Shown piece by piece: positions 1-4,732 of a stretch of 4,732 bases of DNA (positions within the stretch are counted from its first letter, which is position 1; each line of letters begins with the position of its first letter). A model generated the notes under the pieces. The model worked only from the letters and a program-made list of their open reading frames with translations, made no database searches and had not been told where the DNA came from. The stretch is from IMG/VR virus record IMGVR_UViG_2529293240_000011, positions 1 to 4,732 of that record. The stretch is one strand, 5' to 3'. The stretch is from a virus (Duplodnaviria; Heunggongvirae; Uroviricota; Caudoviricetes). Made by a program: the position numbers and the translations under genes.

Positions 1-742
1 TGCCGTAGGGGCCAGCAACGGAATATTCAACTGGCAGCGCATTCCTTACCCAGGCCAGGAAATCACTCTTAGTGTCAAAACGGATAACATCTTCAGGCAG
101 AAAAGCACACCCAAAGCCGAATGCGCCGGGTATCGCCAGACGGCCTTTTGTCCGGTCGTAAATGTCGCTCTGTGCTTCCATCGTGGCCGCACTTTTCAGC
201 CCCAGATTATCCCGGGACTTCTGTTGTGCCTTTTCGCCTGCTGCTGCGATTTCAGACAGATGGTTAGCCGTTTTCAGGGTGCCGGTCAGCGCAGCATCAA
301 TGTCATTTTTGGCCTGTTCTGCTGCGCGGGCATAACCTGCGGCTGCCGCCACATCCTGCGCCGTCTGCTGTGCGTTTCCGGCTGCGGCCCCGGCGCTCTG
401 CTGCGCCTGCGCCACCATTTCCTCAAAGCGTTTGACGACATCCGGTTTCAGGTCGCCCTCATCAGGAGCAATCAGAAAGTCATTCAGCGTGCCGGGCTTT
501 GAGTCCTCATATACAGCAATGTCGCCAACGTTGTACTCGTTGCGCCAGTCCTGTTTCAGATACACACCATATTTTCCAGTCCGCGCATGGAAACAGTATT
601 CACCATCGTTTCCTGTCATCACATCAGCAACAGTGTTCATCACCACTTCCGGGGTGTTTACCCGGGATTTCAGAATAATATGGTATCCGGACATGGGGAT
701 ACCTGCGCCATCAGTCAGCGCACCTGATATCACTACAGACAT
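1..742 (-). CDS. side tail fibre protein, lambda Stf-like N-terminal domain (partial; 3' end lies beyond window start)
   Basis: ATG at 742..740 is the first start after an in-frame TAA at 763..761; I translated the frame by hand and it stays open for 247 codons to position 1. Not in the ORF track because it has no stop in the window. N-terminus MSVVISGALTDGAGIPMSGYHIILKSRVNTPEVV...GDIAVYEDSKPGTLNDFL matches from memory the conserved N-terminal domain of lambda Stf-type side tail fibres (MAVKISGVLKDG...TITVYEDSQPGTLNDFL), followed by an Ala/Gln-rich stretch typical of fibre shafts. Only a weak GAG Shine-Dalgarno in the 23-bp spacer after the upstream gene. Confidence 0.8.
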   Translation of the reverse strand, partial: MSVVISGALTDGAGIPMSGYHIILKSRVNTPEVVMNTVADVMTGNDGEYCFHARTGKYGVYLKQDWRNEYNVGDIAVYEDSKPGTLNDFLIAPDEGDLKPDVVKRFEEMVAQAQQSAGAAAGNAQQTAQDVAAAAGYARAAEQAKNDIDAALTGTLKTANHLSEIAAAGEKAQQKSRDNLGLKSAATMEAQSDIYDRTKGRLAIPGAFGFGCAFLPEDVIRFDTKSDFLAWVRNALPVEYSVAGPYG

Positions 743-765
743 TGTTTTTCTCGCGATAAATTAAA

Positions 766-1311
766 TCAGGAAGAACCTTCCGGAGAGGCGGGCCATTCAA
801 TGGCGTTGTATGAGGATTTATCAGTGATGGTGCTGAAATCCATCGCCTGCAGCGATTTCGCGTAAATACGACAGGCTTTCAGCTTTTCTTTATCTTCGTC
901 GCTGATTAACCCCAGCAGCAGGTCTTCTTCCCATTCCCCTGTCCGGGCACTGACCTGAGCCAGAAGGGCATCACGCTCATCTTCCGCTTTGAGTCTGTAG
1001 TCAAAGACAAATTCATCATTGCGGTAAAACCAGTAACCCGGCGCGGTAATCCGTCGGTTAGCGGTAATATCAGGAACTTCAATAACACTGGCATTGCGTG
1101 GCTCGATGCCTGTCACATCCTTACCGACCCACACCACGCGACCATCTCCGGTGTAAGCTATTTTTATTGTGTCGCTGGCGAAATTCTTCAGCTCTTCATA
1201 CCAGTTTTTTCCGTCTTCTGAAAAAAGCCAGGAGACCGAATATCGTTTTGTCATCTGATATTGTTCTGCTGTTTTCGGATTACCCGCAGTAATATTTTTT
1301 AAATGCAACAT
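766..1311 (-). CDS. tail fibre assembly protein (Tfa chaperone; P2 gpG-like N-terminus, lambda Tfa-like C-terminus)
   Basis: 181-aa ORF whose ATG (1311..1309) lies 2 nt after the fibre stop (TAA, 1316..1314). N-terminus MLHLKNITAGNPKTAEQYQMTKRYSVSWLFSEDGKNWYEE...VIEVPDITANRR resembles P2 gpG as I recall it; C-terminal ...AIEWPASPEGSS resembles the lambda Tfa C-terminus (...DIEWPAVPVME). Position directly downstream of a fibre gene fits a Tfa. Confidence 0.88.
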   Translation of the reverse strand: MLHLKNITAGNPKTAEQYQMTKRYSVSWLFSEDGKNWYEELKNFASDTIKIAYTGDGRVVWVGKDVTGIEPRNASVIEVPDITANRRITAPGYWFYRNDEFVFDYRLKAEDERDALLAQVSARTGEWEEDLLLGLISDEDKEKLKACRIYAKSLQAMDFSTITDKSSYNAIEWPASPEGSS

Positions 1312-1313
1312 TG

Positions 1314-2699
1314 TTAAATACTCGCTACGTTATACCAGGTGCCATTAATCAGTTTTTGCAGTGGTCGGTAATACACACCGTCAACGTTATCCGCTGAGTT
1401 ACGGCCGGTATCCGATATCGCCATCCCTGACAGCCCGTGTCCCGAAGGTGCGCAAAATCTCCACGAAACGGTGTTACTGCCGGGGCTGTAATACATTTCA
1501 TGGCCATACCGTACATCCTGTACCCCCTCTGTTCGATATTTATAGCGGGCATCGAAGTTTCCGTAATTTAACGGAATTACCTGTCCGTTAACAGTGAACA
1601 CTATGCTGTTATCCGGGTTTCTCTGGCTGAAAAAATGCCAGCCTGAATCATCACCAAGCTCTGCAACAACAGGCCTGGATGGATTACCCCACAAATAAAA
1701 CGCTGCATTTTTCGTGGAGTTGTTGGCGCTGGATAACGTGAATTTTCTGGCAGTTCCGGCCTGAATATTCTTAAAAGCAATAGCCACTCCATTCTGAAAG
1801 CGGAATACACGCTGACTATTAGCATAAACATCCAGAATACCGTCTCCATTCTGTTTAAATCCGGTGTCATTATCACCAAGAACAATTGAATTCCCCCCCA
1901 GGGCGTTCTGAACGCCGATACCCAGCGCACCATTGACCTGCGAACCACCGCCAACAGACACTTTATGCGACATGGATATTTCACCCGTCCGCAAATTAAT
2001 GGTGAACGGGCGCAGGGGACCAATATCGCCATTTTCCCCCTGACCTTCACTGGTGGGAATAAGGTGCAGGCACTCTTCCGAACGACGAAAAATCAGGCCA
2101 AAAGCTTCGTTGAAAATCCTCAGCGCATTAACACCACGGATTTTCAGCTCTCCGGTTATTTTATCGCCTTCCCGATGAACATAGCGTTGATCTGACTGCT
2201 CTTTACTGTAAACCTGAAGATTATCCCGTGCCGTCCCTTTATTCTGAAGGTCTGACAGATTGTTCTTCTGCCGCAGGAATATCCTTTTCGGATCCTCAAG
2301 AAGATTTACCCAGCCCGCACTGTCGGAGCCTTCAGGATCGGTCAGGTTATCGTCTGTGGTATTCAGCCAGACCGCTGTTGTTGCGACTCCGGCGAGAATG
2401 GCTCCTTTTGCATATCCACCAATGGCCCCCGCAAAACCGGCATTATACGTGTACAAACCGCCAGCCTGGGCGAACCGTATTGCTGCGGTAATATCGTACA
2501 TCAGACCGTTAAAATCCTTGCCGTGTGGCGGTATACCTCCCGCTGAGACCGCTGTCATGGTCACCGGAGGAAAACCTGAATCATACGCAGCATTACCGCT
2601 CTCTCTGGTCTGCTGTGTCGCCTTGTCCGGGATACGGTTTTTATCTCCGGTACTCGCAAAGGGGACCGCCAGCTGGCGGGGTTTATCACTGGCCTTCAT
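1314..2699 (-). CDS. tail fibre protein with P2 gpH / Mu S-type C-terminal receptor-binding region
   Basis: 461-aa ORF. C-terminal half contains [51 protein letters not shown]...[20 protein letters not shown]...[11 protein letters not shown], which matches the conserved C-terminal region shared by P2 gpH-family fibres (recall, not a search). The N-terminal ~260 aa are not recognisable to me. Start ATG at 2699..2697 is preceded by a strong Shine-Dalgarno (minus strand AAAGGAGTCCCGTAATG). Confidence 0.88.
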
Positions 2700-3290
2700 T
2701 ACGGGACTCCTTTAAAACTACTGAAACATAAACACCCGGCGGGGATGGCAGTGCACCCGACGACTGGATAATCGCCAGTTCTGCCAACGAGAGCGCGGAC
2801 TCAAAGACGTAACTCATCCTCAGCCCACCATTATTCAGAACATAAGCCCGCCGTTTTTTTCCGAACATAAATCTCAGCATCCGGTTAATATCCGGAACGG
2901 AACAGTCAGTAATGTTCGACATGGCTTTCATCAGTATCAGCCGCCGGTATACAGCATCAGACAGGTCAACAGTCCGGGTATCCGATTTTCCGTTGTAAAA
3001 CGGTGCCTGATTAAACGGACAGGGATCATCCATTACCGGGGTGTCCATCCTGGACTCGCTGAAGCCAGGTAATTAAAATCGTCCTTTACCGTCAGCCGGC
3101 GACTGACACCCACAATCTTTCCCCAGACATCAAGACCATACTTTTCTGCGGTATCGATGTTCCAGATAAGACCATAAAAATCACTGATAAAACTGTCGGG
3201 GGAAAGCGCTGCGTTAAAGCTGTTAATGAGGGCATTGAGTCGGGGGCTGGCAGCATACTGCGCAAGCACAGTGGCAGCCACATTCTGCAC
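2686..3290 (-). pseudogene. YmfQ/DUF2313-like phage tail (baseplate) protein gene, split by an apparent 1-nt frameshift
   Basis: Two adjacent minus-strand ORFs in different frames: 3033..3290 (GTG start, 85 aa) and 2686..3048 (120 aa; that frame is open upstream to 3072). The first carries ...FYGLIWNIDTAEKYGLDVWGKIVGVSRRL..., the N-terminal signature I associate with the e14 YmfQ / Mu gp48 (DUF2313) family; the second carries the C-terminal pattern (...YRRLI...NITD...YVFESAL...ELAIIQSSGALPSPPGV). Together they give the expected ~200 aa. The frame change maps to about 3066..3075 (minus strand GATTTTAATTACCTGGC), where one extra T would restore ...DFNLPGFSES.... Could be a real pseudogene or a sequencing indel. 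Confidence 0.6.
2707..2712 (-). promoter_or_regulatory. Shine-Dalgarno (AAGGAG) for the tail fibre gene
   Basis: Minus-strand AAGGAG (plus-strand ctcctt at 2707..2712) sits 7 nt upstream of the ATG at 2699. It lies inside the 3' end of the preceding gene, which overlaps the fibre start by 14 nt. Confidence 0.6.
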
Positions 3291-3291
3291 G

Positions 3292-3534
3292 TTATGCCTC
3301 CTGGAGTTTCACACTGATATCCGACACATCCAGAACCGGAATCTCATCTATCCCGAAAGTGACAGCCGTTGTCCATGACGAACCGTCACGGCTCACAGTA
3401 AGGCCCAGAATATCAATATGTTCCGGATCGGTTTTGTAAATGCCGGCATAGTAGCGCCCGGCAGAGACAACAGAGGCAACCCTTGCCCGCAGACCACCAT
3501 CTGTACCATTAAATGCGTCCAGCACGGATTGCTG
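3292..3534 (-). pseudogene. 3' remnant of a tail/baseplate gene (baseplate J-like by synteny) truncated by the IS insertion
   Basis: The reading frame ending at TAA (3294..3292) stays open upstream across the proposed IS boundary at 3535 and into IS sequence, stopping only at 3603..3601, so the native 5' part of the gene is missing. The stop is 1 nt from the GTG start of the YmfQ-like gene, suggesting translational coupling. In P2/Mu/e14-type modules the gene before the I/YmfQ-like gene is baseplate J; I cannot recognise the 81-aa remnant itself, so identity rests on position. Confidence 0.45.
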
Positions 3535-3560
3535 GTAAGCGCCCCGAGAAGTACGTAGCG
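3535..3560. repeat. putative terminal inverted repeat (IRR) of the IS66-family element
   Basis: GTAAGCGCCCCGAGAAGTACGTAGCG at the inferred IS terminus. Its extent is a guess because the partner IR at the other IS end is outside the window. Confidence 0.4.
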
Positions 3561-3566
3561 TAAGGA

Positions 3567-4732
3567 TTATTTTACAGACGAGAAGTTCCAGGGCAGCAGT
3601 TCATGCACTTGGTTCGACGGCCAGTCATTGAGCTTCTCGATCACTTCGCGCAACCAGTCCTCCGGCTCCACTTCGTTCTGTTTGCAGGTGACCAGCAGAC
3701 TGTAGATGATCGCCGCACTTTCTCCTCCCTTGTCTGAGCCGAAAAAGAGATAATTTTTTCTTCCAACCGCCACCGATCGTAACGCGTTTTCACCGATGTT
3801 GTTGTCTATTTCCACCCAGCCGTCACGACAGAACTCGTTCAGCGCATTCCAGTGATTCAGGATATAGTCGAACGCCTTCGCCATCTCCGCATGTTTCGAC
3901 AGCGTTTTCCTCTGCAACTGTATCCAGTCGTACAACGACTGCATCAACTGGACGCTTCTGGCTTTTCTGACTGCAAGCCGTTCCTCTGCCGGACTGCCAC
4001 GTATCTCCGCTTCTATGTCGTATAACTCTGCTATCCGTCTGAGCGCTTCCTGAGTCATTTCTGTCGGACGGCGCACATCCTCGTCATGGATTTTTCGGCG
4101 GGCGTGGGCCAGGCACCCGGCTTCCTTCACCCGACCCGTTTCGTACAGTACGTTATAACCTGCATAGGCATCAGCCTGCAGTACGCCCTGATACTTTGCC
4201 AGGTGGAGCTGCGGATGTTCTCCTTTGCGATCTGCCGAATACGCGAACCAGACGGCTGCCGGCAGGGATGAACCCGCATTACGATCATCCCTGACGTATA
4301 CCCACAGACGACCCGTTTTCGTCTTTCCGTTCCCCGGGGCCAGTACTTTCACCGGAGTGTCATCTGCGTGCACCTTTCCTGCCTCCAGAACATAGTCATT
4401 CAGCGCTATATACAGAGGACGGAGTTTGTCTGCCATTTCTGATACCCAGCGCACCATGGTATTACGGCTCAGCTCCACGCCCTGTCGCGCGTATATTTCT
4501 GACTGGCGATATAAAGGGATATGTTCCATATATTTGCTGACCAGGATCCGTGCAAGTAACCCTGCACTGGCATAACCGCGTTCGATCGGTTTAGGGGGAA
4601 GTGGTGCCTGAACGATGACATCACACCGGCTACAGGCCAGTTTGGGACGTATGGTTTCGATAACTTTAAAGGCGGTATTAATGATATCCAGTTGCTCTGA
4701 GATTGTTTCCCCATTTCTTTCAGAACACCTCC
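3567..4732 (-). CDS. IS66-family DDE transposase (TnpC-type), partial; N-terminus beyond window end
   Basis: Stop TAA at 3569..3567. I checked by hand that the frame stays open from the ORF-track methionine (4529) up to the window edge (...[80 protein letters not shown]...), so the track's 4529 start is an artefact and about 388 codons are in the window. Motifs LACSRCD (zinc-finger region), [40 protein letters not shown] and ELLPWN are characteristic of IS66 TnpC proteins (recall). Confidence 0.85.

Follow-up and report, generated by a model that had tools for sequence, protein, structure and literature searches.

The window analysed here (the whole stretch of DNA, 4,732 nt) is the complete 4732-bp draft contig AFOW01000034.1 (GCA_000217895.2), and the end of the second fibre gene at position 1 is therefore the edge of a contig rather than a biological boundary. 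All gene calls agree with the original prediction, which had described a fibre gene (fibre 1) and its Tfa in tandem on the minus strand, followed after a 23-nt gap by a second fibre gene with an Stf-type N-terminus (fibre 2; Table 1). The domain assignments also bear out its claim that the two fibres are co-oriented and have N-termini of different families: the first 132 residues of fibre 2 match PF08400 ("prophage tail fibre N-terminal", E 1e-70), and the whole 461-aa fibre 1 protein, found in identical form on nine contigs, has no Pfam match. The protein encoded between them qualifies as Tfa both by family (PF02413, Caudo_TAP, E 8e-27 over aa 40-178; phrog_136, E 1e-59) and by position, since it starts 3 nt past the fibre 1 stop, directly downstream. 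At the other end of the window, the transposase ORF of the IS66-family element matches PF03050 (E 1e-94) as well as PF13817, and the terminal repeat of the element, GTAAGCG, starts at 3535. Scanning the region for promoters and terminators gave a result no better than chance. The window represents the proximal three-quarters of a four-gene cassette, whose last gene, encoding a DUF4376 protein, lies just outside it.

Table 1. Features of the 4,732-nt window
Feature	Position	Strand	Remarks
Fibre 2 gene, 5' part	1-742	minus	ATG 742-740, open to position 2 (247 codons)
Stf-type N-terminal "collar" domain, subtype B	347-742	minus	fibre 2 aa 1-132; PF08400
Spacer TTTAATTTATCGCGAGAAAAACA	743-765	minus	exactly 23 nt, Tfa stop to fibre 2 start
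Tfa (tail fibre assembly protein for fibre 1)	766-1311	minus	181 aa
Fibre 1 gene	1314-2699	minus	complete, 461 aa; PHROG tail-fibre families, E 9e-124
Fibre 1 distal tip, Mu S / P2 H type	1320-1616	minus	aa 362-460; PDB 5yvq
Fibre 1 baseplate-adaptor N-terminus	2295-2699	minus	aa 1-135; linkage to DUF2612/J loci
DUF2612 / Phage_Wedge1 baseplate wedge pseudogene	2686-3290	minus	85-aa and 120-aa ORFs, both PF11041
Baseplate J gene, last 81 codons	3292-3534	minus	same as nt 999-1242 of the L005 J gene
IS66-family element end, interrupting J	3535-4732	minus	transposase ORF 3567-4732 leaves the contig

Decay of the window locus and spread of the cassette

The window locus is a dead Shigella-type prophage remnant, and its copy of the cassette is non-functional. 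Compared with the intact 201-aa gene of a close relative, L001, the wedge gene lacks 1 nt at about position 3067. Two twins of the locus (L005 and L006, complete genomes, 99.9% identical to it) lack the IS66-family element, the J protein of L005 being 413 aa long, and their upstream tail genes are interrupted by IS elements. In both twins a 4-nt deletion brings fibre 2 to a stop at codon 304, and the DUF4376 gene, which is not part of the window, is present 300 nt from the truncated gene. Fibre 2 is intact in L001 (422 aa), and the twins have lost the distal ~118 aa, so that this lineage largely shows the short Stf remnant that, according to the original prediction, would count against two receptor-binding fibres. 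Being a dead remnant, the locus cannot give rise to a two-fibre virion.

In full, the cassette has the order fibre 1, Tfa, 23-nt spacer, Stf-type fibre 2 and DUF4376 protein, and is annotated in the Stx2e-converting myovirus phiP27 (NC_003356, L54-L57), where it lies at the attR end. The window has the same order from fibre 1 to the PF08400 fibre; its cassette is a further decayed copy of a widespread type annotated since phiP27, and no new system. The two are 86% identical in DNA over window positions 375-2180, their Stf-type domains are 86% identical, and the phiP27 Tfa is 74% identical to that of L001. PhiP27 differs in its Mu-like baseplate (L52/L53) with a matching fibre 1 N-terminus, and it is a complete phage with an intact fibre 2 (490 aa), whereas the window is a remnant. 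The same layout occurs elsewhere (E. coli CFSAN029787; W-type prophage at the Rac site), and 122 of the 5426 complete E. coli genomes contain the junction between Tfa and fibre 2. Intact carriers include phiP27, Rac-SA53 and the CFSAN029787 prophage, which lies between sitD and ttcA. Thus, the possibility raised at the outset that the tandem is a common layout, already described, largely proved to be the case.

In IMG/VR, 163 stretches encode the Stf-type domain, and 80 loci were kept for counts. Of these, 36 have a W-type baseplate, 18 the Mu-like baseplate of phiP27 and six the DUF2612/J type, the remaining 20 consisting of three with lambda J/Lom and 17 without a baseplate marker. The loci cover three mutually unrelated types of contractile-tail baseplate and a few lambda-like tails. 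The 23-nt spacer, near-invariant in sequence, recurs in 68 of the 80 loci, and is also 23 nt long in phiP27, L001, L003 and L004. At eight loci the domain stands beside a lambda-type Tfa whose C-terminus is different, as is the spacer, and we therefore rejected a strict pairing of the subtype-B domain with one Tfa C-terminus. The "recombination joint" that the original prediction offered as one reading is correct only historically, in that one junction, far from being unique to this locus, has been distributed over four tail types. We conclude that the cassette is a portable host-range unit that closes the late operon of temperate Escherichia and Shigella phages.

In relatives, the cassette lies at the prophage end with cargo genes (sitABCD or ipaH3, for example) as neighbours. 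Tandem copies of the two Stf subtypes occur in some lambdoid prophages. Two to three copies of the cassette per genome, ~99% identical, are present in the species-representative genome of Shigella flexneri and in a small E. coli genome. This repetition probably accounts for the break of the draft contig within fibre 2, and contigs ending inside such repeated cassettes call for caution against over-reading.

Fibre 1 and the question of inversion

Fibre 1 had been described as "H-like", which is true of its distal part but not of its N-terminal ~135 aa. Window positions 1608-1889 (fibre 1 aa 270-364) share 82% DNA identity with P2 gene H, and the tip of Mu fibre S (PDB 5yvq) is matched by aa 362-460 (E 6e-14), a further match to 5yvq lying at aa 181-283. 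These matches are confined to aa 181-460. The N-terminus of fibre 1 is not of the P2 H or Mu S type, the only matches to its first 135 aa being PHROGs and loci with a DUF2612/baseplate J type of baseplate. Baseplates of the phiP27 and W types each come with their own fibre 1 N-terminus; the N-terminus of fibre 1 thus co-varies with the baseplate type, while that of fibre 2 stays constant. In Tfa, the C-terminal ~70 aa remain conserved even in copies with a divergent N-terminal half (42% overall identity). Of an XM1/E217/Pam3-type baseplate, all that remains in the window is the frameshifted Wedge1 gene and the final 81 codons of J; the intact J of L001 matches E217 gp44 (8env, E 6e-25) and XM1 gp16 (7kh1, E 3e-10).

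The cassette shares with Mu S/U and P2 H/G the fibre tip, the stretch of P2 H DNA and a PF02413 Tfa directly downstream of the fibre, and differs from them in the N-terminus of fibre 1, in having no invertible segment and in possessing a second, co-oriented fibre. Two fibre/chaperone pairs ending a Mu/P2-like fibre module occupy the usual location of a switch, and one may therefore consider that they are alternative fibres, expressed singly in the manner of the G segment of Mu, the C segment of P1 and the P segment of e14, all of which are invertible. However, both pairs lie on one strand, as do all four genes, and the two fibres differ in their N-termini and so have no common constant part. 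Neither the window nor the 10 kb downstream in L005 and L006, where the genes beyond fibre 2 are DUF4376 and then sitDCBA, contains a recombinase, and the longest inverted repeats in the region are of 16-19 nt at 88-89% complementarity. An invertible segment was consequently rejected, there being neither a nearby invertase, for which the original prediction had proposed to look, nor a meaningful inverted repeat, and alternative expression of the two fibres is hardly credible.

Fibre 2 and its possible place in the virion

The Stf-type domain of fibre 2 matches the collar domain of lambda Stf (9e7m/9mgh, E 8e-17; aa 1-92, 92 aa ungapped) and the neck spike gp40 of phage XM1 (7kjk, E 7.7e-6). 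Its identity is ~46% to lambda StfN and 74-88% to copies on other tail backgrounds, and judging by a median dN/dS of 0.12 across backgrounds it is under purifying selection. A single-sequence AlphaFold2 model of the domain has six strands followed by a helix, with a mean pLDDT of 42.9, which made it too poor to use in a fold search. Neither Pfam nor the PDB contains a relative of the distal part of fibre 2, and hence no receptor can be proposed for it. At most loci the intact fibre 2 of relatives is 422-1047 aa long, and its gene abuts or overlaps that of the DUF4376 protein.

Fibre 2 could be a fragment of a lambdoid stf gene that was caught near the attachment site by illegitimate recombination, has no function and is merely a passive passenger. 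Its position at the prophage end, beside sitABCD or ipaH3, would fit such an origin, as would the fact that the known docking partners of the domain are lambda proteins; moreover, fibre 2 is frameshifted in the lineage of the window, and ~11 of ~60 evaluable loci have truncated copies. These truncations, however, cluster in an IS-ridden Shigella-like group, and most copies are intact, differ in length and have a DUF4376 gene as co-varying partner. The low dN/dS also speaks against dead cargo, and with only three of the 80 loci lambdoid, it is unlikely that lambdoid phages were the source and myoviruses the recipients. We therefore regard this origin as improbable.

Our main explanation, which we hold with moderate confidence, is a portable two-fibre cassette whose intact relatives build both fibres into the virion, the copy in the window being a relic. 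In those relatives fibre 2 is an intact ORF under purifying selection and has its own partner gene, and for them the "dual-fibre virion" of the original prediction is accordingly the better of its two readings. These relatives probably assemble particles that bear two receptor-binding fibres. Fibre 1 would sit on the baseplate wedge, whereas the N-terminal domains of fibre 2 would attach it by forming a ring that encircles the tail axis, most probably at the neck in the way of XM1 gp40; with both in one virion, the phage would have two receptor specificities. The DUF4376 protein is a candidate chaperone of fibre 2, as suggested by its position and co-variation only. Two receptor-binding proteins per virion are established experimentally in the T5-like phage DT57C (branched LtfA/LtfB fibres) and in T4 (long and short fibres); the principle of wider or staged host recognition is alike, whereas the proteins and attachment adaptors are unrelated, and the two-fibre virion of the cassette is a prediction from sequence. 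Our literature search found no functional study of this two-fibre layout, nor any virion proteomics or imaging of a cassette-bearing phage.

The two solved homologues of the domain offer precedents for its attachment. In lambda, twelve copies of StfN assemble into a collar where gpV meets gpM (PMC12617516), and the N-terminal domain of XM1 gp40 binds the neck proteins gp4 and gp5 of a Vibrio myophage that has both neck and baseplate spikes (PMC10457771). Lambda Stf (Ur-lambda; PDB 9E7M, 9MGH) resembles fibre 2 in being an accessory fibre with its own downstream partner gene, its homologous N-terminal domain being followed by an Ala/Gln-rich shaft. The two differ near the beta4-beta5 hairpin, which in lambda contacts gpV and gpM, where lambda has VE-Y-G-Q and subtype B has AR-T-G-K (the strands being taken from a low-confidence model). 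They also differ in context, since fibre 2 of the window follows Tfa and has a DUF4376 partner, whereas lambda stf follows lom and has a PF02413 partner. XM1 has a simple contractile tail with a neck "collar spike" (gp40) and a baseplate spike (gp18); the N-terminal domain of gp40 is a sequence homologue of that of fibre 2, but the distal parts are unrelated, and the numbering of gp18 and gp40 suggests that their genes are far apart, unlike the fibre genes of the cassette. Neck attachment is demonstrated for gp40, and homology suggests it for fibre 2.

Most carriers are contractile-tailed and have no homologue of gpV or gpM. What speaks against our main explanation is that these two proteins are absent from contractile tails, in which the tube is covered by the sheath. 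Furthermore, BLASTP detected no sequence similarity among the neck proteins of three backgrounds, so that a domain conserved at 74-88% identity would need to bind dissimilar neck proteins. PDB searches with E. coli neck proteins gave only a non-significant match of the neck terminator to XM1 gp5 (E 0.74) and an irrelevant match. When the virion proteins of three full myovirus prophages were compared by BLASTP, only the four cassette proteins were common to them, and no conserved docking partner was found outside the cassette.

This last result would be expected if the fibre were branched, i.e. if fibre 2 docked on fibre 1 or on a tip-bound Tfa and thereby added a second specificity to each baseplate fibre, like LtfA/LtfB in DT57C, because the cassette proteins are the sole virion proteins that the backgrounds share and the docking domain is nevertheless so well conserved. 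The C-terminal domain of Tfa, the 23-nt spacer and the Stf-type domain also travel as a block. Mu-type Tfa reportedly stays bound to the mature fibre, and the tip of fibre 1 is homologous to that of Mu fibre S (5yvq). Nonetheless, both solved homologues of the domain ring the tail axis rather than a fibre, the eight loci with a lambda-type Tfa have the domain beside another C-terminus and another spacer, and linkage of adjacent DNA accounts for the co-inheritance with no physical contact at all. We thus consider a branched fibre rather unlikely.

Within the two-fibre explanation, the subtype-B Stf domain might be a docking adaptor that is independent of tail type and uses a new docking mode, a suggestion that we make only tentatively. 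It may be a collar that assembles by itself with little need for specific contacts, or may dock on fibre 1 or its chaperone. The basis for it is the occurrence of one domain, 74-88% identical, at the head of a second fibre in three contractile lineages with no detectable virion protein in common outside the cassette. The same subtype-B domain is also found in lambda-like tails that already have a subtype-A Stf. If true, fibre 2 and the DUF4376 protein would constitute a plug-in second receptor-binding module. The way in which a single conserved Stf-type domain would mount a second fibre on unrelated tails could be of use for host-range engineering.

Gene order and decay of the locus

Every gene in the window lies on the minus strand, and the gene coordinates and domain matches bear out what the original prediction described, namely a fibre gene with its Tfa followed, after a 23-bp gap, by a fibre with an Stf-type N-terminus. 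Its designation of fibre 1 as H-like holds for the distal half only, which resembles P2 H (82% DNA identity at window 1608-1889) and Mu S (PDB 5yvq, fibre 1 aa 362-460, E 6e-14), while its initial ~135 aa make up a different adaptor. A small hairpin, GGAAGGTTCTTCC, with TGATTTAATTT coming next, overlaps the last Tfa codons (window 769-781, minus strand) and could be a weak attenuator ahead of fibre 2; terminator-like sites in this region were not clearly more frequent than expected by chance.

Features of the window and their coordinates, in order of transcription
Feature	Position	Strand	Remarks
IS66-family element end	3535-4732	-	transposase PF03050, E 1e-94; terminal repeat GTAAGCG from 3535
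Baseplate J gene, last 81 codons	3292-3534	-	
DUF2612/Phage_Wedge1 wedge gene, broken into two ORFs (85 and 120 aa)	2686-3290	-	1-nt deletion near 3067
Fibre 1, 461 aa	1314-2699	-	
Tfa, 181 aa	766-1311	-	PF02413, E 8e-27
Spacer, 23 nt	743-765	-	
Fibre 2, open for 247 codons	742 down to position 2	-	PF08400, E 1e-70

The window is the entire contig AFOW01000034.1 (assembly GCA_000217895.2), and its positions 1-3534 are found at 99.9% identity in two complete chromosomes, L005 (UGYT01000001) and L006 (CP024470). The IS66-family element splits J at codon 333 of 413, and its transposase ORF runs past the contig end; since both of these 99.9%-identical loci lack it, the insertion is either strain-specific or an assembly join. 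The deletion behind the wedge gene split falls in a G run, and seven of the other loci with the identical fibre 1 protein (L005-L008, L010-L012) have their gene divided in the same way, into 85 aa and 115-120 aa.

Beyond position 1, where the original prediction proposed to look for a full-length fibre 2 and a nearby invertase, L005 and L006 have a fibre 2 that stops at codon 304 and a DUF4376 gene downstream, with no recombinase near the cassette. Compared with E. coli CFSAN029787 (L001), where the gene is intact at 422 aa, both carry a 4-nt deletion that throws fibre 2 out of frame; the frameshift region (L005 12870-13173) lies directly past window position 1, and what follows can still be read in a different frame. 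After the stop come a 300-nt gap, a 207-aa DUF4376 gene and sitDCBA, which marks the prophage end. The same 304-aa truncation occurs in the IMG/VR loci L018, L019, L022 and L026. Upstream in L005 and L006, IS elements truncate the tail module, and there are no genes for sheath, tube or head. Given this decay, the sit or ipaH3 genes that adjoin the cassette in the nearest named relatives, and the two cassette copies (~99% identity) in the GTDB representative of Shigella flexneri, the locus is a prophage remnant in decay, of the type found in Shigella and enteroinvasive E. coli.

The block from the fibre 1 tip through Tfa and fibre 2 to DUF4376 has two or three copies per genome, ~99% identical to the window, in S. 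flexneri SFBU1023 and E. coli ECMA0423 (L098-L102), which is probably why the draft contig stops inside fibre 2. Virulence or fitness cargo directly follows DUF4376 at the prophage end (L001 4250-7699; L004 3008-4723): sitABCD in CFSAN029787 and the Shigella twins L005 and L006, ipaH3 in strain RMDEC465 (L004).

Distribution of the cassette

The tandem layout recurs widely. The order fibre 1, Tfa, 23-nt spacer, PF08400 fibre, DUF4376 is that of L54-L57 in the phage phiP27 annotation, of CFSAN029787 and of the W-type prophage at the Rac site, and a 401-nt junction probe was found at a coverage of at least 80% in 122 of 5426 complete E. coli genomes. Public annotations have included the layout since phiP27, and many E. 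coli genomes share it; the literature searched yielded no study of its function or structure. To this known layout the window contributes one degraded copy.

Close relatives of the fibre 2 N-terminal domain were found in 163 IMG/VR stretches, from which 80 loci were kept. The spacer is exactly 23 nt in 68 of the 80, and its near-invariant sequence, TTTAATTTATCGCGAGAAAAAC(T/A), persists even where the upstream Tfa is just 42% identical overall. Tail backgrounds were W-type (36 loci), phiP27 Mu-like (18), DUF2612/J, the window's type (6), and lambda J/Lom (3), the remaining 17 having no baseplate marker in the DNA examined; the lambdoid order is J, lom, lambda-type Stf, Tfa, subtype-B fibre (the window's domain type), DUF4376. 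Subtype B is found in only 4 of the 296 isolated-phage records with the domain, the others being lambda-type at ~47% identity or less, and among species-representative genomes the exact spacer occurs only in S. flexneri SFBU1023 and E. coli ECMA0423.

Two records deserve comment. 'Actinobacillus phage vB_Apl-pPE4' (PP818812.1 42424-43766) matches the Escherichia fibre cassette at 85% DNA identity, and at 87% protein identity in the Stf-type domain, which is unexpected given its Pasteurellaceae host. NZ_CP026085.1 (L003/L097), labelled E. coli DH5alpha, gives the same match to the window as E. coli W records (85.3% identity over the same ~1.8 kb) and carries a ~45-kb myovirus prophage at the Rac site, where a K-12 strain would presumably have the defective Rac prophage; its label therefore looks doubtful.

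Maintenance and possible docking of fibre 2

In most evaluable loci the fibre 2 ORF is uninterrupted, at 422, 474, 490, 608, ~655, ~760, ~860 or ~1045 aa, and it runs up to or into the start of DUF4376. A constant N-terminus with variable distal length is typical of a receptor-binding protein under diversifying pressure. Across backgrounds the median pairwise dN/dS over the first 110 codons is 0.12, an indel inflating pairs with L093. Fibre 1 shows another pattern: its N-terminus changes along with the type of baseplate, and there is shuffling of its tip and Tfa. Together these observations argue for a maintained two-fibre module and speak against the single accidental recombination joint that had been proposed as one origin of the tandem. 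Dead cargo is a description that fits this locus but not the family, for which we reject it; truncated copies (125-304 aa) are concentrated in the IS-rich group at least 95% identical to the window. An invertible switch is excluded, since no invertase lies in the window or within 10 kb downstream in L005 and L006, no inverted repeat is usable, and the genes all point the same way.

The W-type fibre 2 (1046 aa; L003 5227-8367) contains three module copies, each opening with Q.DIYDRT.GRLA.PG.FG.G, whereas fibre 2 of the window has a single such module, from near aa 186 (window 1-185); no Pfam or PDB relative of the module was found.

Two domains of solved structure are homologues of the fibre 2 N-terminus. 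In Ur-lambda, twelve copies of Stf residues 1-94 encircle the gpV/gpM junction as a collar, from which four trimeric fibres hang (PMC12617516). In Vibrio myophage XM1, gp40 attaches to the head-completion and tail-terminator proteins through its ~100-aa N-terminal domain, so that the neck bears six gp40 trimers, and the baseplate bears another spike, gp18 (PMC10457771). The window's prophage type has the same simple kind of baseplate as XM1, and J of CFSAN029787 matches E217 gp44 (E 6e-25) and XM1 gp16 (E 3e-10).

When three contractile-tail prophages were compared in full by BLASTP, only the four cassette proteins were common to them, apart from a 23% match between two of the J proteins, with no similarity detectable among neck, sheath, tube and head proteins. 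The docking domain is nevertheless 74-88% identical across these dissimilar backgrounds, which may mean that the ring needs hardly any specific contact. The same conservation would also suit a branched fibre, in which fibre 2 may have its docking partner inside the cassette, as would the joint inheritance of the Tfa C-terminus, spacer and Stf-type domain; however, linkage alone accounts for the latter, and 8 of the 80 loci join a subtype-B domain to a lambda-type Tfa. The subtypes differ in the hairpin with which lambda Stf contacts gpV/gpM, the strands having been assigned on a model with pLDDT 43. Subtype-B domains of phiP27 and W-type prophages have cysteines at 20, 59 and 70 (some copies also at 46 and 50), where the window lineage has Y20, G59 and N70 (fibre 2 aa 20-70, window 533-683); one thought is that they may form disulfide bonds in a collar.

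The best reading by analogy is that in intact relatives fibre 1 and Tfa would form baseplate fibres and fibre 2, probably folded with the help of DUF4376, a ring of collar or neck fibres, so that the two sets may provide two receptor specificities.
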